In this document: positions 1,449-21,711 of the stretch, in pieces
How positions within the stretch are numbered: position 1 is the stretch's first letter
Layout: every line of letters begins with the position of its first letter
IMG/VR virus record: IMGVR_UViG_2531839145_000010
DNA from: a virus
Lineage: Duplodnaviria > Heunggongvirae > Uroviricota > Caudoviricetes
Reading direction: 5' to 3' (one strand)
DNA: 36,526 nt
Made by a program: the position numbers and the translations under genes
Notes under the pieces: generated by a model
Database searches by the model: none
Told to the model about the DNA's origin: nothing
Seen by the model: only the letters and a program-made list of their open reading frames with translations

Positions 1449-2105
1449 CTATTTAACATACTTGACTGTTAAACTTATAATTTTACCAATTATTTCAATG
1501 TCTTCTATCTTGCATTCGAAGGCTCTGTTTCCACCCTCGACGAAGATTCTTCCACCGGGTAAACGAGTAATGTCACGGATCGTTATTTCGCCATCAATAC
1601 TTATTACCCATTTACCATCACGTATATCATCAAATTCTTTATCACAAATAAATTCAGAATTGTTATCTGTGATGACAAAAGGTTTTTTAAACGTAGAGGG
1701 TAGAAATCCCTTATCAAAAATATAAAAACCGTCTTTCTGCAATGCTCCATCAGACAATAAATATTTTTCTACTTCTATAGTATTTGTATTTGCTGATGCT
1801 TGCTTTGAACCATGCCCTGTTGTTAGCCAATTAAGCGAGGTGCCCGTTTCAAGGGCGCACTGGATTACCCAATCTGCTGGAAAAATATCACGCATATAGC
1901 GCGTTGCCATGGTGCTCTTAGAAACACCTAAATGATCACAGAGAGCCTGACGAGTACCGAACCCATATGCTTCAACTAAACGTTCTATGGCTTTCTTACC
2001 GCCGCTATTGAAATCCACAAGTCCTCCAAAGAAATCCAAAATTCGTTGACAGATTCCAAAAGCGATCTTAAAGTTGAACCAGAAGTGTTCTTTTGGAGCC
2101 TTCAC
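1449..2105 (-). CDS. cI: Phage 186 CI-type immunity repressor
   Basis: LVEAYGFGTRQALCDHLGVSKSTMATRYMRD...CALETGTSLNWLTTGHG resembles the recalled 186 CI HTH region; divergent from apl; true start may be internal to the 218-aa ORF. Confidence 0.7.
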   Translation of the reverse strand: MKAPKEHFWFNFKIAFGICQRILDFFGGLVDFNSGGKKAIERLVEAYGFGTRQALCDHLGVSKSTMATRYMRDIFPADWVIQCALETGTSLNWLTTGHGSKQASANTNTIEVEKYLLSDGALQKDGFYIFDKGFLPSTFKKPFVITDNNSEFICDKEFDDIRDGKWVISIDGEITIRDITRLPGGRIFVEGGNRAFECKIEDIEIIGKIISLTVKYVK

Positions 2106-4232: not shown

Positions 4233-4531
4233 CAGGGGCTGTGCGTATCCATCAATTAAAAATTGCACCTAAGTATTTCAATGCTGTGGTTGCAGGTCAA
4301 AAGACGGCTGAACTTCGTAAAGACGATCGTGGCTATAAAGTTGGTGATGTTCTTTCTCTTTGCGAATGGAAGCATGGCGTATTTACGGGTAGGGAATGGG
4401 CCGCGGTTATCTCTCATGTGCTTCCGGTTAATGACGTCATGGCAGTTTCAGAACAATGGGTGATGCTATCAATTCGCTCATTAACCCCATTAGAAGCTTT
4501 AGGATATGTTATTGCAGGAGGTGCTGTATGA
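4229..4531 (+). CDS. ASCH/DUF3850-like small protein
   Basis: 100-aa ORF; start overlaps upstream stop (ATGA); call rests on recalled family resemblance. Confidence 0.5.
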
Positions 4532-5385
4532 GCACCATCCTGAAATGGGCGGGAAATAAAACCGCAATTATGTCCGAACTGAAAAAACACCTTCCTGCTG
4601 GCCCGCGACTGGTTGAACCTTTCGCGGGTTCCTGTGCTGTGATGATGGAGACGGATTATCCAGGCTATCTGGTTGCGGATATTAATCCTGATTTAATCAA
4701 CCTCTATAAAAAGGTTGCCGCTGATTGTGAATCGTTTATATCTCGCGCCAGAGTTTTATTTAAGGAAGCAAACAGGGAGGTGGCTTATTACAACATAAGG
4801 CAGGAGTTTAATTACTCAAATGAAATTACTGATTTCATGAAAGCGGTATATTTCCTGTATCTCAATCGTCACGGTTACCGTGGTTTATGTCGCTATAACA
4901 AGAGCGGGCATTTCAACATTCCCTACGGTAATTATAAAAATCCGTATTTCCCAGAAAAAGAAATTCGCGCATTTGCAGAAAAAGCCCAGCGGGCAACGTT
5001 TATCTGCGCCAGCTTTGATGAAACGCTGGCGATGTTGAAGGCGGGGGATGTGGTGTATTGCGATCCGCCGTATGACGGCACGTTTTCCGGTTATCACACT
5101 GACGGCTTCACTGAAGATGACCAGTATCACCTGGCATCCGTTCTTGAACATCGGTCATCAGAAGGACATCCGGTCATTGTTTCTAACAGTGACACATCCC
5201 TGATCCGTTCGCTGTATCGCAATTTTACTCACCACTACATCAAGGCAAAACGCAGCATCGGCGTAGCAGCTGGTGAGAGTAAATCTGCAACAGAAATCAT
5301 CGCTGTTTCTGGGGCGCGCTGCTGGGTGGGATTTGATCCTTCGCGTGGCGTGGATAGTTCTGCCGTGTACGGAGTGCGTGCATGA
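4528..5385 (+). CDS. DNA adenine methyltransferase (Dam-like)
   Basis: N-terminal KWAGNK...EPFAGS and catalytic DPPY motifs. Confidence 0.85.
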
Positions 5386-7796
5386 GCCATGCTGATATGA
5401 ACAACTGCAGCGGCTTTAACGAGGCCGCCGCAGCATTCTCATGGAACAGCCCGAAAAAGGCTATTAACCCTTATCTGGACCCGGCGGAAGTTGCGCCGGT
5501 TTCTGCGCTTTCAAACCTGATCACTCTGTACGCTGCCGATAACGAGCAGGAACAACTGCGCCGCGAGGCACTGAGTGATCAGGTCTGGGAGCGTTATTTC
5601 TTTAATGAATCCCGTGATCCTGTCCAACGCGAAATGGAGCAGGATAAGCTCATTAGCCGGGCAAAGCTGGCGCATGAGCAGCAGCGTTTTAACCCGGACA
5701 TGGTCATTCTGGCAGACGTCAGCGCCCAGCCCTCCCATATCAGCAAGCCGCTGATGCAACGTATTGAATACTTCAGCAGCCTGGGCAGGCCAAAGGCTTA
5801 TTCCCGCTATTTGCGTGAGACGATTAAGCCATGTCTGGAACGACTGGAGCATGTACGCGACAGTCAGCTATCCACTTCTTTTCGCTTTATGGCAAGCCAT
5901 GAAGGGCTGGACGGCCTGCTGATCCTGCCTGAAATGAGTCAGGATCAGGTGAAACGCTTGTCTACCCTTGTCGCTGCGCATATGAGCATGTGCCTTGATG
6001 CAGCTTGTGGCGATTTGTATGTCACCGATGACGTTAAGCCAGAAGAAATCCGCAAGACATGGGAAAAGGTGGCAGCGGAAACCCTGCGTCTGGATGTCAT
6101 CCCGCCTGCGTTTGATCAACTCCGCCGGAAAAGAAACCGCCGTAAACCCGTGCCCTATGAACTCATTCCGGGTTCGCTGGCGCGTATGTTGTGCGCCGAC
6201 TGGTGGTACCGGAAATTATGGAAGATGCGTTGCGAATGGCGGGAAGAGCAGTTGCGTGCTGTTTGCCTGGTCAGCAAAAAAGCATCTCCCTATGTCAGCT
6301 ATGAAGCCGTGATGCATAAACGTGAGCAGCGCCGTAAGTCGCTGGAGTTTTTTCGTTCTCATGAACTGGTGAACGAAGACGGCGACACGCTGGACATGGA
6401 GGATGTGGTAAACGCCAGCAGCAGCAACCCTGCGCATCGCCGCAATGAGATGATGGCCTGTGTTAAAGGCCTGGAGCTTATCGCGGAAATGCGCGGTGAC
6501 TGCGCCGTTTTCTACACCATCACCTGTCCGTCACGTTTCCATTCCACGCTAAATAACGGCAGGCCCAACCCAACCTGGACAAATGCGACGGTAAGACAAA
6601 GTAGTGATTATCTGGTCGGCATGTTTGCTGCATTTCGTAAGGCGATGCACAAAGCCGGATTGCGCTGGTATGGCGTGCGGGTGGCTGAGCCGCATCATGA
6701 CGGTACAGTTCACTGGCACCTGTTGTGTTTTATGCGCAAAAAAGACCGCCGCGCCATCACTGCATTACTGCGTAAGTTTGCCATCCGTGAAGACCGCGAG
6801 GAGCTGGGCAATAACACTGGGCCGCGCTTTAAGTCTGAGTTGATTAACCCGCGCAAAGGTACGCCAACAAGCTACATCGCGAAATACATCAGTAAGAACA
6901 TTGACGGGCGTGGTCTGGCTGGCGAGATCAGCAAGGAAACGGGGAAATCCCTGCGTGATAATGCTGAATACGTTAATGCCTGGGCGTCTCTGCATCGTGT
7001 TCAGCAATTCCGCTTCTTTGGCATTCCGGGGCGTCAGGCTTACCGTGAACTGCGATTGCTGGCTGGTCAGGCGGCAAGGCAACAGGGGGACAAAAAAGCA
7101 GGTGCGCCGGTACTGGATAACCCGCGCCTTGATGCAATCCTGGCTGCTGCTGATGCTGGTTGTTTTGCCACCTACATTATGAAGCAGGGCGGCGTACTGG
7201 TTCCCCGCAAATATCACCTTATCAGAACAGCTTATGAAATTAACGAAGAGCCGACCGCCTATGGCGATCACGGTATTCGTATTTATGGCATCTGGTCACC
7301 CATTGCAGAGGGCAAGATTTGTACTCATGCAGTGAAGTGGAAAATGGTTCGTAAGGCCGTTGACGTTCAGGAGGCGGCAGCCGACCAGGGCGCTTGCGCC
7401 CCTTGGACTCGTGGCAATAACTGTCCCCTTGCTGAAAATTTGAACCAACAGGAGAAAGATAAATCAGCTGATGGGGACACCAGAACGGATATTACCCGCA
7501 TGGATGACAAGGAGTTGCACGATTTTCTGCACAGTATGAACAAAAAAGAGCGCCGGGAACTGGCTGCAAGGTTACGCCTGGTGAAACCGAAACGGCGTAG
7601 AGACTACAAACAGCGAATTACAGACCATCAACGACAGCAGCTCGTCTATGAACTGAAGTCCAGAGGATTTGATGGCAGCGAGAAAGAGGTAGATTTACTC
7701 TTTCGCGGTGGCAGTATTCCGTCAGGAGCAGGCCTGCGTATCTTCTATCGGAACCAGCGTTTGCAGGAAGATGATAAGTGGCGGAACCTGTATTAA
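5382..7796 (+). CDS. A: Replication initiation endonuclease (P2 gpA-like HUH rolling-circle initiator)
   Basis: 804 aa; HUH motif VHWHLLCF and catalytic-Tyr motif YIAKYISK; position downstream of the early operon. Confidence 0.9.
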
Positions 7797-7889
7797 TTAC
7801 GCTGGTTAACAATTCATGCTCTTAATAATACCAGGCATATCAGGCTGATAAGCGTAAAAAAAACGTTTTACATCAGTAAGATTATTATA

Positions 7890-7909
7890 TACTGTAAATA
7901 TAAACAGTG
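7890..7909. promoter_or_regulatory. LexA (SOS) box within the promoter region upstream of ORF62/DinI-like genes
   Basis: TACTGTAAATATAAACAGTG, a CTGT-N8-ACAG palindrome close to the LexA consensus; a TATACT -10-like hexamer overlaps it. Confidence 0.65.
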
Positions 7910-7949
7910 GTTATGTGTACAGTATTGCTTTGGTGTCATAGGAGGAAAG

Positions 7950-8138
7950 ATGCAGGACTATTTTTTGGAGTCTTTGAAGCTCCAGCGCATTGATTTTTTT
8001 CTTAAGCTTGTAGCGGCTAGTGAGTGTAGTGATGAAGAGAAGGGGCTGGCTTTGCAGTGGGTTTCTGAATTGACTGATGAACTCATGGCAAAAATCAGAA
8101 GCCACGAATACAACCGCTCAATGGATGTCATCAGCTGA
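7950..8138 (+). CDS. Hypothetical SOS-regulated protein (62 aa)
   Basis: First ORF downstream of the LexA box, ggagg RBS; Tum-like antirepressor role suggested only by position. Confidence 0.45.
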   Translation: MQDYFLESLKLQRIDFFLKLVAASECSDEEKGLALQWVSELTDELMAKIRSHEYNRSMDVIS

Positions 8139-8148
8139 GGTGACTTTT

Positions 8149-8382
8149 ATGCGCATTGAAATAATGATCGATAAAGAGCAGAAGATTAGCCAGTCTACCC
8201 TGGACGCCCTTGAATCCGAGCTTTACCGCAATCTGCGCCCCCTGTATCCCAAAACGGTAATCCGTATCCGTAAAGGTAGCTCTAACGGTGTGGAACTGAC
8301 CGGACTGCAACTGGACGAAGAAAGAAAACAAGTGATGAAAATTATGCAGAAGGTGTGGGAAGACGACAGCTGGCTGCATTAA
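8149..8382 (+). CDS. DinI-family protein
   Basis: MRIEIMIDKEQ...WEDDSWLH resembles recalled E. coli DinI (MRIEVTIAKT...WESADDWF); ATG 8149 preceded by gaggtg. Confidence 0.75.
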   Translation: MRIEIMIDKEQKISQSTLDALESELYRNLRPLYPKTVIRIRKGSSNGVELTGLQLDEERKQVMKIMQKVWEDDSWLH

Positions 8383-8476: not shown

Positions 8477-9160
8477 CTATGATTGAAGAGCAATCTTTCT
8501 CAACGTATCAAATACAATTTTTGTAAAATTATTTTCATTTTTAACGTCAATGTAAGCAAGAGCGTTATTAGTAATTTTAAGTTTACCAGAATACTCTAAT
8601 GAATTAACGGAGCAAACAAGTTTGTCAATTCTTATTTTCTTCCCCTCTAATTCTTCTTTATAATATTTTCTAAGGTCACTGCTGCCAATTATTTGCATTT
8701 TAGCTGTAGCGTAATCAGCGACTCTAACTCTAGAAATATCCAGTTGTGTTAGATTTATATTCACATTTGAAGATATTTCGTTGAGCCAGTCCATCGGATT
8801 TATATCAATCTCTTCTAGGCTAACGCCTAAGCCAAGATTTCTGACTAAGGCCTGTGAAAACGGTTTTAAAGTTCGCGGAGGGTTAGTAAGTTGCATTATA
8901 GGAAGAGTATCTAAAGATACACTGAAATTAGTAGTGCGGTATTCGACTCTTTCTACGATAGTTTCGCTTCCGTCAAAATTAGAAACTTGATCGTGATAAA
9001 TAATACGCTCAACAAAGCGTCCATGTGCAGAATCATGACGTATTTTATCAAAAATAAACCCTTTCCCCTTATCCTCGGTAAAAGAATCAAGAGAAAGACG
9101 TTTAACAGCTTTTTCAAATTCAAGCCGTATGTTTAATTTGAGCCACTTAACCTTCTTCAT
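8477..9160 (-). CDS. Cargo operon gene 3: hypothetical protein (227 aa), no recognised domain
   Basis: Start overlaps upstream gene by 14 nt; AT-rich; no motifs recognised by eye. Confidence 0.7.
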   Translation of the reverse strand: MKKVKWLKLNIRLEFEKAVKRLSLDSFTEDKGKGFIFDKIRHDSAHGRFVERIIYHDQVSNFDGSETIVERVEYRTTNFSVSLDTLPIMQLTNPPRTLKPFSQALVRNLGLGVSLEEIDINPMDWLNEISSNVNINLTQLDISRVRVADYATAKMQIIGSSDLRKYYKEELEGKKIRIDKLVCSVNSLEYSGKLKITNNALAYIDVKNENNFTKIVFDTLRKIALQS

Positions 9161-10226
9161 GTTCGTTTACCTCTGGTCCTATTATTATATTATAGGCATT
9201 TTCAGCGGCTGACTCAATTAATTCACTAATATGTCTTTTCTCTTGTGCCGTTGCCGCACGAATTGTCACATTGAATCCGTCTTCTTTTTGATTATTTATC
9301 CCTTTAATTTGATAGGCAAAGTCACAGCAATTTTCAGAGTCTTTGAAAAATGCTTCAACGTTAATTCTGTCACCAACTCCACTTGTCGGTTTTGAAGACC
9401 ATGCGATACGGCCTATATAATAACCTTTCTCGTGTAGTTGAGAAAATATAGGCGAACTATTAACACCTTCACCATTCAAAACAGCTTTCTTGACGAATCC
9501 GGTATCGATTGTTTCTTCTTTGTCTTCATCTTCACTTGCGTCAATACTGCGATTTAATTCTACTTTCGTTACATCATCAGTCTCATAACCATGTAGTCCA
9601 TTCATTAACTCTTGAAAGAACTGGCTTCGCAATGTAGGGTCAGTGATTGCCATTAAAGAAATTTCAAAACGTTCAATAGGCTCAGATTTGATTTTAGACA
9701 GCTCGTTTTGCAGACCCTCAATAACTTTTTTTGCCTCAGGATTCTGTGGCATACGTACTTCAACCTTGTCAACACCAGGGCGAAGTTCTATTATGACATT
9801 CCGTTTATCTATTTGACGCAGAGCGGTTTTAGATAAGTCTATTTCTTCATAGTTATATTCTACTGTCAGAGAACCATCTTTTTTCGCTACGATATTCAAG
9901 CTTTGCCCTTTACTGGGTGAACATGTTTTTTTCAATGCTTCAGCTGCGCTCTTTAATTCGGCCTGATTTGTTGTGGTCTGAAAACTCACACTGGTAATGC
10001 TTTCTCTTGGATCATATGTTTTGACCATCTTTTTTATATGCTCTAATTCATTAAAGCCATGGGGGAGTTTTGATATTTCCTCGATAAGTATTTCCTTGTC
10101 GAGTTCTGGTGATAAAAAAACACCTCTATTTAGCAATAATTCATGTAATTTTGCAGGGGTTATTCTTTTATGATGCAAAGCATCATAAATATTCTTGTCA
10201 GTCGCAAAGTATAATTTTTTAGCCAT
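9147..10226 (-). CDS. Cargo operon gene 2: hypothetical protein (359 aa), highly charged
   Basis: ATG overlaps upstream stop by 1 nt (TAATG); acidic stretch DASEDEDKEETID; no catalytic motif recognised. Confidence 0.7.
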   Translation of the reverse strand: MAKKLYFATDKNIYDALHHKRITPAKLHELLLNRGVFLSPELDKEILIEEISKLPHGFNELEHIKKMVKTYDPRESITSVSFQTTTNQAELKSAAEALKKTCSPSKGQSLNIVAKKDGSLTVEYNYEEIDLSKTALRQIDKRNVIIELRPGVDKVEVRMPQNPEAKKVIEGLQNELSKIKSEPIERFEISLMAITDPTLRSQFFQELMNGLHGYETDDVTKVELNRSIDASEDEDKEETIDTGFVKKAVLNGEGVNSSPIFSQLHEKGYYIGRIAWSSKPTSGVGDRINVEAFFKDSENCCDFAYQIKGINNQKEDGFNVTIRAATAQEKRHISELIESAAENAYNIIIGPEVNEHEEG

Positions 10227-11227
10227 TATCGTTGCTCCATCCCAATTTTTTCAAGATTATATTCAACTACAACTTTGTCTGTCTTTTCGAAGTCAAATTT
10301 AAGAAAAAGTCTTTCATCCTCACCTAACAGCCAGTCTGTACTGTATTTCTTTTTAGCTTTTTCAAAATGATGAATAGCATTTTCATTTGGATGGATATGA
10401 CAATGACGTAATAAAATTGGTTTGCCTTCAGTGAGTATCTGATAAGTTGATAGCATGTCAAAAAAGTACACAAATTCATCTAATGAATCACCGGGTTGAT
10501 TGTAATAAACAACATACCCTTCTGGGATATCTTTTTTAAGCCAGCTAAAAGCCTCATGTTTAATTATGATGTATGGCGATGTTAATAATTCAATTGTCGC
10601 AGGTGTTGTTTGGTTGATGGGGTGTTTTATTCTTGTTAAAGAAAGATCTGGGTAATAGTAAGTAAACTTATCAGGCTGTGGAAGTTTTCCAGAGCCTATT
10701 AATTTGGTTATGTCAGAGGATATATTTATTAAATCAGATATTTTATAGGGGTCAAGTAAGTGTAGTTTTATGTTTGGAGGACAATTTATAACGGAATGAT
10801 CTAATTTTTTTGTAATATTTTCATAGAAATCTTTATCATATAGATTATCATGATTATACAAAAATAACAAACCTCTTACATTATAACCTAAAGAATCATC
10901 ATGAACGTATTTCAATCGCCACTCTTCACTTACATTCGCACACTCGGTAGCTAAAGCAAGTGAGGTTAAGGCACCTTCGACCATTTTTTTACCAATAGAT
11001 CCCACCGCATAGCTCTTTAGATCTGTATTGAGATAGACCATTTCCTCTTCATAAGGGTCTGTGTAGAAAAATACAACATCACTTGGATGGGTTTTCTTGG
11101 AATGTACCTCTTGGCAACATTCCCAATTCATGTCCGCTCTAGCGGCGCGATCCCATTTGAATACAGAGAAAATATCATCAGAAATTTTACCTGCGACTCG
11201 TTGTATAGCCGAAGTTTCTCCACCCAT
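10226..11227 (-). CDS. Cargo operon gene 1: hypothetical protein (333 aa), His-rich C-terminal motif
   Basis: GGAG RBS about 10 nt upstream of ATG 11225-11227; His cluster HCHIHPNENAIHH; AT-rich; occupies the P2 old/tin position. Confidence 0.7.
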   Translation of the reverse strand: MGGETSAIQRVAGKISDDIFSVFKWDRAARADMNWECCQEVHSKKTHPSDVVFFYTDPYEEEMVYLNTDLKSYAVGSIGKKMVEGALTSLALATECANVSEEWRLKYVHDDSLGYNVRGLLFLYNHDNLYDKDFYENITKKLDHSVINCPPNIKLHLLDPYKISDLINISSDITKLIGSGKLPQPDKFTYYYPDLSLTRIKHPINQTTPATIELLTSPYIIIKHEAFSWLKKDIPEGYVVYYNQPGDSLDEFVYFFDMLSTYQILTEGKPILLRHCHIHPNENAIHHFEKAKKKYSTDWLLGEDERLFLKFDFEKTDKVVVEYNLEKIGMEQR

Positions 11228-11445
11228 TTTATAATCGCTCCTTTAAAATTGCTGTGGCAATCCGCCATTAAATCCATCTGATTTGATGTGTAATCTAACC
11301 GTATGGTTTGTATGTGTTTGTTGCATGACTATAGCGCATGAAAATGCATGATCGCAAAGGGATCGTTTATGTCTAGGCACTCCAGTTCTGGAGAGGCTTT
11401 GAAGAGTTCATGCGATTGCATGAAAACCACTATGTGAAGTGAGCA

Positions 11446-11464
11446 GGCGTGGCGGGGATACGAG
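11446..11464. other. Candidate cos site (cohesive-end region)
   Basis: GGCGTGGCGGGGATACGAG; first 13 nt match the P2/186 cos 19-mers as I recall them; lies upstream of the portal gene. Confidence 0.4.
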
Positions 11465-11643
11465 CGCGCGTAACGGGGCGAAAAAGTAATAATCCCGCGT
11501 ATTGGAGAGATTGATTTGAAGTTTTCGGGATCGTGTTGCAATATATTGGCACACATTAAATGATGTTGATTTCATTGACTTAATGTGGAAATGGAACTGT
11601 GAAACAACATACGTCAGCGATGTTACTTTCAAAAGGATAGACA

Positions 11644-11937
11644 ATGAAAACCATATACAACTATGACTTTCAATACTTACGTAAAGGGGATACGCGACCT
11701 CTTGATGATGGAGAGATTGTAGGATGTTCTTCGGAAGACAATCCACTCCTGATGCTTCCGAATGTTGGGGATTATGTCGACATTACCAACAATAAAGACC
11801 GTGAGTCGTTTGGTGGGAAAGTGAAATCAAGGTTATTCAGATATACTCGAGTAAGTGAAGACCATGTTATTTGCAACATCAATATTGTTGTTGAAGAGGT
11901 TGAAGACTCGGTATGGGGCACACTTGTTAAAGAGTAA
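11644..11937 (+). CDS. Hypothetical protein (97 aa), AT-rich cargo ORF
   Basis: aaggatag RBS before ATG; followed by a strong terminator; between candidate cos and portal gene. Confidence 0.55.
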   Translation: MKTIYNYDFQYLRKGDTRPLDDGEIVGCSSEDNPLLMLPNVGDYVDITNNKDRESFGGKVKSRLFRYTRVSEDHVICNINIVVEEVEDSVWGTLVKE

Positions 11938-11939
11938 AC

Positions 11940-11970
11940 AAAGCGCCTGCAGTAGCAGGCGCTTTCTGAG
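11940..11970. terminator. Bidirectional rho-independent terminator
   Basis: aagcgcctgc-agta-gcaggcgctt stem-loop followed by tct on plus strand and a T-rich run on minus strand; between convergent genes. Confidence 0.7.
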
Positions 11971-11982
11971 CCTAATCTATAT

Positions 11983-13011
11983 CTAATACATATAAGGTTC
12001 GAAGCGAATTATTTCTTCGCCCAGCCAGTCGTTAAGCTCCTGCAGTCGCTTCTGTAACGGCATCAGTTCGTTGCGGACAAAGACGCGGCTGGCTTTTTCA
12101 ACATCACCAAATCCCCCAACATTACTCGGCATGATCCCCATCATTTGTGGCGGTACACGGTGCGCAGCCATCATGTCATCGCGGCTGACATTTTTGATAT
12201 TCAGAAACTCATCCTTCGCCGCGACTTCTGACAACGGGATGATCTGAAGCCCGTCCTTTTTGCCGTTAGGCGAGTACATAAACAGGTTGCGGAAGTTGCC
12301 AGGGCCTTTGGCGCTTTTCATCGCATTGCGGAGGTTGTTCACATCCTCTTGGTTCTGCGCGGCATCGGTCATGTACATGATGAAGCCTGCATGGCTGCCG
12401 TTGATGTAATACTTACGGCGGAACAGCGTGGCAGACTCGTTGAGCAGGGCGGATGGAATGGCAGAAAGATAGCCTGGCAGGCCGTAGATCTCCTGGTTGA
12501 TGTCCGGTTCCATCAGATGAAAAATGCTGCCTTTCGTGAACTGATACGGCTGGGTTGTCATACCGTATTGCACAAACCAGTAGGTATCCAGGTCTAACCC
12601 ACGTCGGGTGTATTTTGCCAGCGCAGGCTCAAGGGCGATAACTTCACCGAATCGGTTCGTGCGTTTCTCCAGGTAGGCGTTACCAAATACCAGATAGTCC
12701 TGCACAAAACGCGAAAAAGCCTGTTGGCTGAGCAGCGGGTGAGGGATGTAGGTGCTGGTCAAAATGTTGCATTTCACCGCAATCGGTGAGCTGTGATGCA
12801 CGGCGGCGCGGAAGGTTCGTGCCAGTCCGTCAAAGCTGACGGGCGGCTCATACCAGCGATCCATCTGTACGCATTCCACATAGTCCAGCAGTTCGCGGCG
12901 GTCCAGAACAGGAACGGGATCACCGAAGCTGAATGCTTCGGCTGAAGTCTGGCTTTTATGCTGGTTCTGGTTCGTCGACGCAGCGCGGTTCTTCTTACTC
13001 TTTCCCATCAA
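11983..13011 (-). CDS. Q: Portal protein (P2 gpQ-like)
   Basis: 342 aa; size and position next to terminase in the leftward Q-P operon; recalled similarity to P2 Q. Confidence 0.85.
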   Translation of the reverse strand: MMGKSKKNRAASTNQNQHKSQTSAEAFSFGDPVPVLDRRELLDYVECVQMDRWYEPPVSFDGLARTFRAAVHHSSPIAVKCNILTSTYIPHPLLSQQAFSRFVQDYLVFGNAYLEKRTNRFGEVIALEPALAKYTRRGLDLDTYWFVQYGMTTQPYQFTKGSIFHLMEPDINQEIYGLPGYLSAIPSALLNESATLFRRKYYINGSHAGFIMYMTDAAQNQEDVNNLRNAMKSAKGPGNFRNLFMYSPNGKKDGLQIIPLSEVAAKDEFLNIKNVSRDDMMAAHRVPPQMMGIMPSNVGGFGDVEKASRVFVRNELMPLQKRLQELNDWLGEEIIRFEPYMY

Positions 13012-20749: not shown

Positions 20750-21616
20750 TTACTTTTTACTGATAAATGGATTCCTATCAATCCATGAGTCCCAGTTTAT
20801 ATAATTGTCATCAAATCCTATGAATTTCATTAGTACAAGTGGCACCAGTAAATTCAAATTTGATGAGTAATCTTGAATTTCAATTTTGCCATCTGAGTTT
20901 TTTTCATCAAGATAGGCAATGTATTTACCATTGTGGAACAGCGAGTGACGGAGTTTGCAGTAATGCATAATGTTTCTTTGAGCTAATGTATGTCCTGTTT
21001 TTTCGACATTAAAACCATATTCTTTTAAAACCTGAGTGATTATTTGTGGCGTTTTGGCAGGGGAGTAGTCATTTTTAATAAATCTGCAAAGTGCTTCTAG
21101 TGCCGAGAATAATAAATAATATCTGACGTCGATATAATTTATTGAGTCGCGGAAAGCTAGCATTGATTTAAAAAATGATGTTCTAAAGGCATCTTGTTTT
21201 AGCATGGCTTTACTATTTAGTTTTTCCATGGCTAAGCAAATAAAATTTTCTCGGCTGTTTGGTGCAAAATAATCTTCCATGATGATAATGCCAGCACCCT
21301 TATCTCTTTTTTTGTCAAGCTTTTTGGGTAGGGATGGTTTGAAATTGAAAGGGGTTTCATCATTTTCAAGTTCTCCTGAAATGATTACATTTTTTTGTTC
21401 AATAAAACTAAGAACTGCTTGTAAATCAAAAATAAGCTGCTGTTGAGTGGCGTAGTTATTCGAGTTTGGTTTGAAAAAACCAGTGAGGATGTACCTATCA
21501 TTAGCCCAGCCATTTTTTTTTAACTCACTCCATGAACTGAAAATAGGAGTTAACTCACCACCGTCAAATGTGATTTTTTTAGTGAAATTAAATCCATAAA
21601 TTGCGATTTGTGTCAT
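20750..21616 (-). CDS. AT-rich cargo protein (289 aa) with possible HEPN-like R-x4-H motif
   Basis: ATG 21614-21616 with taagg RBS preferred over the track start at 21664; motif KLRHSLFHNG; sits in the S-V variable locus (P2 orf30 position) on the opposite strand. Confidence 0.65.
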   Translation of the reverse strand: MTQIAIYGFNFTKKITFDGGELTPIFSSWSELKKNGWANDRYILTGFFKPNSNNYATQQQLIFDLQAVLSFIEQKNVIISGELENDETPFNFKPSLPKKLDKKRDKGAGIIIMEDYFAPNSRENFICLAMEKLNSKAMLKQDAFRTSFFKSMLAFRDSINYIDVRYYLLFSALEALCRFIKNDYSPAKTPQIITQVLKEYGFNVEKTGHTLAQRNIMHYCKLRHSLFHNGKYIAYLDEKNSDGKIEIQDYSSNLNLLVPLVLMKFIGFDDNYINWDSWIDRNPFISKK

Positions 21617-21645
21617 CTTAAATACCTTAGAAATTGTTTCTCTTT

Positions 21646-21663
21646 TGTGTGGTTCTCCATACA
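21646..21663. promoter_or_regulatory. Ogr/Delta-type late-activator site (TGT-N12-ACA) upstream of V
   Basis: TGTgtggttctccatACA, sharing TGTGTGGTT with the site at 14821; spacing to the V start codon is shorter than at the other two sites. Confidence 0.4.
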
Positions 21664-21711
21664 TACGCTCTGTATTACATCACTCTACCCGGTTGTGCAA
21701 GGATCGCTCTC

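Follow-up and report, generated by a model that had tools for sequence, protein, structure and literature searches.

An Intact Allele of the Three-Gene Anti-phage System 3HP in a P2-like Prophage Hotspot and a Possible GAPS4-like Mode of Action

Introduction

The gpA-gpQ hotspot of phage P2 was surveyed by Rousset et al. (2022, Cell Host Microbe, PMC9122126), who cloned from it a three-gene system, 3HP, and validated it against phage P1. The clone, pFR109, is described as "hp + hp + hp" with Escherichia coli E1114 as its source (PMC9122126, Table S2A), and its protection was limited to P1 among eight phages (PMC9122126); the literature that we searched lists 3HP as unclassifiable. Here we analyze a three-gene operon, hp1-hp2-hp3, in a 36,526-nucleotide stretch of DNA from a virus of the Caudoviricetes (IMG/VR record IMGVR_UViG_2531839145_000010), the whole of which we call the window. 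Sequence comparison securely identifies this operon as an intact allele of 3HP, carried as cargo in the cos-proximal gpA-gpQ hotspot of a P2-like prophage, and suggests a model for how the system may act.

Two further points of reference are needed. GAPS4 (Mahata et al., bioRxiv 10.1101/2023.03.28.534373 and 10.1101/2025.09.07.674715) has been purified as a 2:2 complex with a predicted GAPS4b ring. It is a non-selective DNase that degrades host and phage DNA and kills at high multiplicity of infection (MOI), it is triggered by DNA breaks from nalidixic acid or from a type VI secretion system DNase, and no escape phages could be obtained for it; the active site of GAPS4a is an HGxD-SxK motif whose Asp is essential (bioRxiv 10.1101/2025.09.07.674715). 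The RdgC dimer forms a ring whose basic pore binds DNA non-specifically, and RdgC inhibits RecA functions; variants of the RdgC fold that likewise bind DNA are RexA and the Iml3-Chl4 heterodimer (PMC11077077). In the literature that we searched, we found no paper linking 3HP to either GAPS4 or RdgC, and the GAPS4 preprint names neither 3HP nor RdgC.

Results

Identity of the Operon

The three window proteins match the PADLOC models PDLC03004 (Hp1, E = 2.6e-233), PDLC03005 (Hp2, E = 1.5e-245), and PDLC03006 (Hp3, E = 5.3e-144), with protein and profile covered over their full length in each case. The system is named Rst_3HP in DefenseFinder, and a PHROG family exists for each of the three proteins. 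Relative to pFR109, the window proteins are 94.6% (Hp1), 95.3% (Hp2), and 87.7% (Hp3) identical, and the sequence at 11228-11650 of the window is homologous to the upstream region that was cloned in that plasmid. By extrapolation from the 88-95% identical pFR109 proteins, the window allele would be expected to act against P1 as well.

A first-pass annotation, made from the letters alone, had described the operon as unassigned and as a candidate novel system, a view that the full-length PADLOC matches, the PHROG families, and the Pfam matches on homologues do not bear out. It had nonetheless inferred a defense role from position and composition, and rightly so, as 3HP is experimentally active against P1 and comes from the same P2 gpA-gpQ hotspot. 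The coordinates and junctions agree with its description of three coupled minus-strand open reading frames (ORFs), their sizes, and their overlaps: the hp1 stop and the hp2 start share one nucleotide in TAATG, and hp2 and hp3 overlap by 14 nucleotides (ATGAAGAAGGTTAA). The AT-richness that it reported is also present, with a GC fraction of 0.32-0.39 at 8501-11000 versus 0.53-0.59 in the structural-gene backbone, and the placement between gpA/DinI and cos/portal is borne out by Pfam matches and a cos-type core. We note that the trio consists of real genes rather than chance ORFs, because each protein has hundreds of homologues and the order and sizes of the three are conserved across phyla.

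The operon is rare in E. coli, being present in 16-17 of 5,426 complete genomes. By nucleotide identity to the window, these carriers form two allele groups, one of 5 genomes at ∼99.7% and one of 11-12 at ∼87%, so that the window belongs to the rarer group. Klebsiella P2-like phages carry the 3HP operon too.

Hp1 Is a PD-(D/E)xK Nuclease Candidate

The residues T46-H47-P48-x-D50 and D69-L70-K71-S72-Y73 are invariant in 21 Hp1 homologues (37-76% identity), and the motif THPxD...DLKSY is at least 90% conserved among 197 sequences. Judged by its conservation and form, this motif is a PD-(D/E)xK signature with H47, D50, D69, and K71 as the catalytic candidates; RefSeq names the E. coli Hp1 a PD-(D/E)XK nuclease domain-containing protein. 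The first-pass annotation had seen no nuclease motif, which was an error, and had singled out a His cluster. That cluster does exist; however, it falls in a variable and gapped stretch of the 21-sequence family alignment, and we ruled it out as the Hp1 active site.

The set of true GAPS4 systems used for comparison consisted of two plasmid loci, from Ewingella and Pantoea. The Ewingella proteins score 290.6 bits for GapS4a (cut-off 270) and 319 bits for GapS4b (cut-off 300); the Pantoea GapS4b is 88% identical to that of Ewingella, and the two-gene layout is the same. An Hp1 profile aligned to Ewingella GapS4a by hhalign with a probability of 96.6% (E = 5.8e-10) over 246 columns, placing KKTHPSD on KKTHGID, and a broad Hp1 hidden Markov model (HMM) matched the same protein with 44 bits (E = 7e-15). 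Reciprocally, Ewingella GapS4a matches PADLOC Hp1. The second half of the motif is the canonical DLK in Hp1 and SxK in GAPS4a, and the hhalign alignment has this second half out of register by two residues. At the level of families, NCBIfam antiphage_GapS4a is matched by 6 of 21 Hp1 family members (30-41 bits, best E = 1.2e-10), colinear from the N-terminus, and precomputed Pfam annotation places PF26115 (PDDEXK_GAPS4) on all Hp1 homologues among the matches listed, one of them 95% identical to window Hp1. Against the GapS4a model NF047933, whose cut-off is 270 bits, window Hp1 itself has no match at E up to 1, and neither it nor Hp3 has a match in local Pfam and NCBIfam scans, the local Pfam being seemingly older than PF26110 and PF26115. 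A sequence search of the PDB yielded no useful relative for Hp1, Hp2, or Hp3. These comparisons indicate that Hp1 is a remote homologue of GAPS4a.

Hp2 and Hp3 Have Predicted RdgC Folds

The NCBIfam GapS4b model NF047934 matches residues 14-311 of window Hp2 with 22.6 bits (E = 4e-5; profile positions 8-326 of 355), which falls short of the cut-off of 300 bits. This model is matched by 13 of 41 diverse Hp2 proteins (best E = 2.4e-9), making it the sole recurrent family, and PF26110 (GAPS4b_N) matches Hp2 weakly in the precomputed Pfam annotation. Local Pfam gave Hp2 sub-threshold matches to unrelated families only, and no RdgC model. The link from Hp2 to GAPS4b draws on synteny and on the family models of NCBIfam and Pfam; as Hp2 profiles did not match the individual Ewingella and Pantoea GapS4b sequences significantly, we regard this homology as probable but not proven. 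In predicted structures, the base and center domains of the RdgC fold are both found.

Hp3 is predicted to be a stand-alone protein of the RdgC fold. Its predicted structure is confident, with a local confidence score (pLDDT) of 93.3 and a template modeling score (pTM) of 0.85, and a Foldseek comparison with viral models independently retrieves phage "recombination-associated" proteins. At the sequence level, Hp3 has no relative in Pfam (E up to 1), NCBIfam, or the PDB, and profile comparison gave no relation to GapS4b. The notion that Hp3 is a sequence paralogue of Hp2 was ruled out (hhalign probability 0.3%). Neither of the two true GAPS4 loci has an Hp3-like ORF or a third co-oriented gene (best E = 0.77).

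Of the three subunits, Hp3 evolves fastest: the mean pairwise identity over 75 loci is 44% for Hp1, 33% for Hp2, and 23% for Hp3. Only two residues of Hp3, both glycines, are conserved at 90% or more, and this near-absence of conserved residues argues against an enzymatic role. Window Hp3 is basic, with an isoelectric point (pI) of 9.1, while the family median is 7.8 and about half of the relatives have a pI above 8; window Hp1 and Hp2 are acidic. Mirror-tree partial correlations were 0.70 for Hp1-Hp2, 0.57 for Hp2-Hp3, and 0.13 for Hp1-Hp3, a pattern that is gone among close pairs.

The Trio Is Conserved as a Unit

A survey seeded with Hp1 covered 80 loci, with one genome per species, together with an E. 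coli relative (L001); five truncated contigs were set aside. The loci span Proteobacteria, Cyanobacteria, Verrucomicrobia, Clostridia, Myxococcus, Caldiserica, and others. In all 76 genome loci with sufficient downstream sequence, the genes stand together in the order Hp1-Hp2-Hp3, with near-constant sizes and tight or overlapping junctions. Seeding with Hp3 gave the same picture, with Hp2 directly upstream in 29 of 29 viral contigs and Hp1 in 28, the last contig ending inside Hp2. The Hp3 family comprises 684 representative clusters (50% identity, E up to 1e-3); the best 150 of these 684 are all stand-alone proteins of ∼200-236 amino acids (aa), bar a few fragments, and include no fusions. Two members sampled among the most distant Hp3 proteins listed still lie behind PDDEXK_GAPS4 genes, and one of these two sets adjoins OLD-family and restriction-modification genes. 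Judged by conservation, Hp3 is an obligatory partner of Hp1 and Hp2 across bacteria and in at least one archaeon.

The archaeal locus, on a plasmid of Halobacterium sp. DL1 (CP007061.1, 3286-6252), has the permuted order Hp3-Hp1-Hp2, with proteins of 233, 322, and 433 aa that match their families with E values of 3e-16, 2e-24, and 1e-17, respectively. The three genes adjoin tightly or overlap, and an integrase gene lies next to the locus. A distant subfamily occurs on an Enterobacter roggenkampii IncR plasmid (NZ_CP122402.1, 3992-6985) and on ∼15 other plasmids of Enterobacter, Citrobacter, and Klebsiella. Its proteins have 363, 415, and 215 aa; the nuclease is ∼35% identical to a query from the Hp1 family (P0028), and its Hp2 and Hp3 give weak PADLOC matches (E ∼1e-11). 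These are clinical-type plasmids, and the locus adjoins IS26.

Two decayed copies were seen in E. coli. Both retain an intact hp3. In strain M9682-C1, two IS1 insertions split hp1, and in LT883142.1, ISKpn26 (IS5 family) replaces the 5' end of hp2 along with hp1. The loss of hp1 to insertion sequences (IS) in each case would fit an effector that is costly to its host.

Rousset et al. (2022) also list, as system 32 of their Table S5B, an Hp2 apparently identical to that of the window together with a near-identical Hp1 and a divergent third protein. We find that this third protein, although only 22% identical to window Hp3, is genuinely homologous to it (E = 3e-44). The corresponding locus was absent from the viral contigs searched, and plasmids gave distant relatives only. 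We therefore abandoned the view that different Hp3 alleles are exchanged beside an unchanging Hp1 and Hp2; the entry may stem either from true exchange of modules or from the choice of cluster representatives.

Genomic Setting

The features of the operon and of its surroundings are collected in Table 1. The annotation of the left border of the hotspot matches the RefSeq record of a 99.6% identical relative. The leader before hp1 matches the native upstream region within the functional pFR109 clone, and a sequence scan gave no convincing terminator after hp3.

Table 1. Coordinates of the 3HP operon, its control elements, and its surroundings in the window
Feature	Position	Strand	Description
hp3	8477-9160	-	227 aa; stand-alone RdgC fold, fastest-evolving; predicted DNA-binding sensor or regulator
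hp2	9147-10226	-	359 aa; N-terminal helical domain and RdgC-fold body, GAPS4b-like; predicted scaffold/ring subunit
hp1	10226-11227	-	333 aa; PD-(D/E)xK nuclease, GAPS4a-like; predicted effector
Hp1 predicted catalytic motif	11009-11092	-	Residues 46-73, THPSD(50)...TD(69)LK(71)SY; from conservation
Hp1 His cluster	10367-10405	-	HCHIHPNENAIHH, residues 275-287; not conserved
Leader before hp1	11228-11375	-	Promoter-like sites and Shine-Dalgarno sequence
Putative promoter-like sites	11375-11348, 11357-11328, 11260-11231	-	Consensus scan only
Shine-Dalgarno sequence	11237-11243		AAAGGAG, strong, before hp1; sequence read
cos-type core	11446-11458	not assigned	GGCGTGGCGGGGA; ∼220 bp upstream of hp1
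Left hotspot border	5382-8382	+	gpA, small ORF, DinI
gpA	5382-7796	+	Replication endonuclease; Pfam PF05840, E = 1e-127
DinI	8077-8382	+	Pfam PF06183, E = 1e-22
Right hotspot border	11644-13011		97-aa ORF and portal gene
97-aa ORF	11644-11937	+	Between cos and portal gene
gpQ	11983-13011	-	Portal; Pfam PF04860
Dam-like methyltransferase	4456-5385	+	Orphan DNA adenine methyltransferase; PADLOC oMTase, E = 2e-111
218-aa ORF	1449-2105	-	CI-type phage repressor
Second AT-rich island	20750-21664	-	304-aa ORF

The core GGCGTGGCGGGGA has one exact match in the window against 0 expected. The exact P2 cos 19-mer is absent from the window even when up to three mismatches are allowed, and a 186-like variant core stands in its place. 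We take GGCGTGGCGGGGA to be similar to the cos of P2 and P4, GGCGAGGCGGGGAAAGCAC, a reading that also draws on the P4 clones listed by Rousset et al. in their Table S2A. The 97-aa ORF beyond the core matches no Pfam or PADLOC family. In relatives with the same 3HP operon, its slot is filled differently, by a ParA gene and a hypothetical gene in L001 and by genes for a HIRAN-domain protein and a 304-aa protein in L122; given this differing cargo, the gpA-gpQ hotspot stacks several modules.

Elsewhere in the window, the Dam-like methyltransferase gene lies just upstream of gpA and is conserved backbone in relatives. The AT-rich 218-aa ORF near the left end bears the RefSeq name of a CI-type phage repressor in 100% identical relatives and is not cargo. 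The second AT-rich island (GC 0.34-0.41) has the virion-morphogenesis gene on one side and the baseplate V gene on the other; at least 80% of it is found in 24 of the 5,426 complete E. coli genomes, with its flanks in ∼1,000, and two relatives have an IS1 at the site. Its 304-aa ORF has no PADLOC match and is named hypothetical in RefSeq. This island looks like another variable cargo slot.

Discussion

Because the Hp1-Hp2 core is homologous to that of GAPS4, we propose that 3HP may act in a similar way, as a nuclease licensed by DNA sensors of the RdgC fold. Hp1, the GAPS4a homologue, would be the PD-(D/E)xK DNase effector. Hp2, as the counterpart of GAPS4b, would dock Hp1 through its N-terminal helical domain and form a DNA-encircling ring or horseshoe with its RdgC-fold body, and Hp3 would join this assembly as an additional DNA-binding sensor or gate that tunes activation. 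We envisage a complex that stays quiet on intact DNA and is licensed by the DNA ends, breaks, or replication and recombination intermediates that an infection makes, that of P1 in the published test, whereupon it would degrade DNA non-selectively and abort the infection. Within this scheme, Hp3 would be the most likely determinant of the trigger because it is the fastest-evolving subunit. Taken as a whole, this is the account toward which we lean, if only slightly.

A more specific version is tentative, and we would not put it at even chances: 3HP might be a three-subunit elaboration of the GAPS4 DNase in which Hp2 and Hp3 jointly form the sensor, for example as a pseudo-symmetric hetero-ring like that of Iml3-Chl4, with Hp3 setting the DNA structure or phage factor that licenses the nuclease. 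A trigger specificity set by Hp3 would explain the narrow, P1-only range.

Several observations weigh against a GAPS4-like nuclease of this kind and temper our confidence in it. The scores of Hp1 and Hp2 are about one tenth of the NCBIfam GapS4a and GapS4b cut-offs, as befits remote homology, and Hp2 profiles give no significant match to the Ewingella and Pantoea GapS4b sequences. The absence of Hp3 from GAPS4 was established at only two true loci. 3HP protects against P1 only, whereas the range of GAPS4 (GAPS4-RiKo) is broad, and the triggers may therefore differ. Hp2 and Hp3 have no detectable sequence similarity to each other, and DNA binding by Hp3 is not assured, since only about half of its relatives are basic and almost none of its residues are conserved. 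The mirror-tree result, which would place the subunits in a chain Hp1-Hp2-Hp3, may only mirror the ordering of their evolutionary rates. Finally, we found no 3HP experiment in the literature beyond the P1 plaque assay, and the need for Hp3 is inferred from conservation only.

The same data can be read in other ways. One possibility, which we consider unlikely though worth taking seriously, is that 3HP resembles a toxin-antitoxin module, in which Hp1 is constitutively dangerous and Hp3, alone or jointly with Hp2, restrains it as a protein inhibitor until a phage product or a shut-off of host expression takes this inhibitor away or titrates it, with no role for the sensing of DNA structure. The tight translational coupling of the genes would suit such an arrangement, as would a basic Hp3 beside acidic Hp1 and Hp2 in the window and the rapid evolution of Hp3, which is what one would expect of a subunit targeted by phage proteins. 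Both decayed copies, moreover, lost hp1 and kept hp3, the order expected if the inhibitor cannot go first; two IS events, however, are too few to establish an order of loss. The homologous GAPS4 core is controlled without a third protein and responds to DNA breaks, and the fold of Hp3 is that of a DNA-binding ring protein and of no known antitoxin, both of which speak against this reading.

Less probable again is direct interference without abortive infection. Here, the complex would load onto phage DNA as it enters or replicates, for instance at free ends prior to circularization, and cut that DNA only, so that the cell survives behind a barrier similar to restriction or RecBCD. P1 DNA enters linear and terminally redundant, and a PD-(D/E)xK effector with ring-type DNA binders would be well suited to loading at such ends; phage DNA is also degraded in GAPS4. 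But GAPS4 degrades host DNA too and kills cells at high MOI, the trio has no methyltransferase or other self-marking partner, and the inactivation of hp1 by IS elements suggests a cost to the host. That the trio is not primarily a defense system at all but a prophage accessory module, in which RdgC-like RecA antagonists and a nuclease beside DinI modulate host recombination or the SOS response for P2, we regard as very improbable: two RdgC-fold proteins do adjoin the DinI gene and RdgC does inhibit RecA functions, but an 88-95% identical allele protects against P1 when cloned alone, the trio is also present away from prophages, on plasmids and next to genes of the OLD family and of restriction-modification systems, and DinI is conserved backbone rather than cargo.

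We attach little weight to discovery here. 3HP has been known, as a cloned and validated system, since 2022, both of the standard defense-annotation tools detect it, and the window contributes one allele to a system that is already known and catalogued. What may be new is the view of 3HP as a GAPS4 core with a second RdgC-fold subunit, although it is computational and partly implicit in the reach of the Pfam GAPS4 model. It provides a concrete, testable model of 3HP action, namely, a GAPS4-like DNase core with an obligatory second RdgC-fold subunit. If true, 3HP would join a growing set of nuclease systems (GAPS4, Shedu, Hachiman) in which DNA ends or damage to DNA are sensed, and RdgC-fold rings, already present in lambda RexA, would be a recurrent sensor module in phage exclusion.

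Comparison with Known Systems

The window operon agrees with the 3HP of pFR109 in gene order, in protein lengths of 333, 359, and 227 aa, in its gpA-gpQ slot, and in its homologous upstream region, and it differs as an allelic variant only, with Hp3 as the most diverged component. With E. coli RdgC (PDB 2OWL), Hp2 and Hp3 have a predicted fold in common and no sequence similarity, and Hp3 is ∼75 residues shorter. Lambda RexAB pairs an RdgC-like sensor, RexA, with a membrane effector, RexB, whereas the partner in 3HP is a nuclease, which sets 3HP apart from RexAB; CENP-L-N and Iml3-Chl4 stand beside RexA as named DNA binders of this fold. Relative to GAPS4, 3HP has DLK instead of SxK in the second motif and an obligate third gene, hp3, in place of a two-gene or fused architecture. 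The likenesses to GAPS4 extend over both of the remaining proteins. Each system has an N-terminal PD-(D/E)xK nuclease with a His-x-x-Asp element (HPSD in 3HP, HGxD in GAPS4a) and a second protein of ∼360 aa, a ring in GAPS4 and a predicted RdgC ring fold in 3HP, and the two have in common their gene order, an overlapping junction, and a remote but detectable sequence homology.

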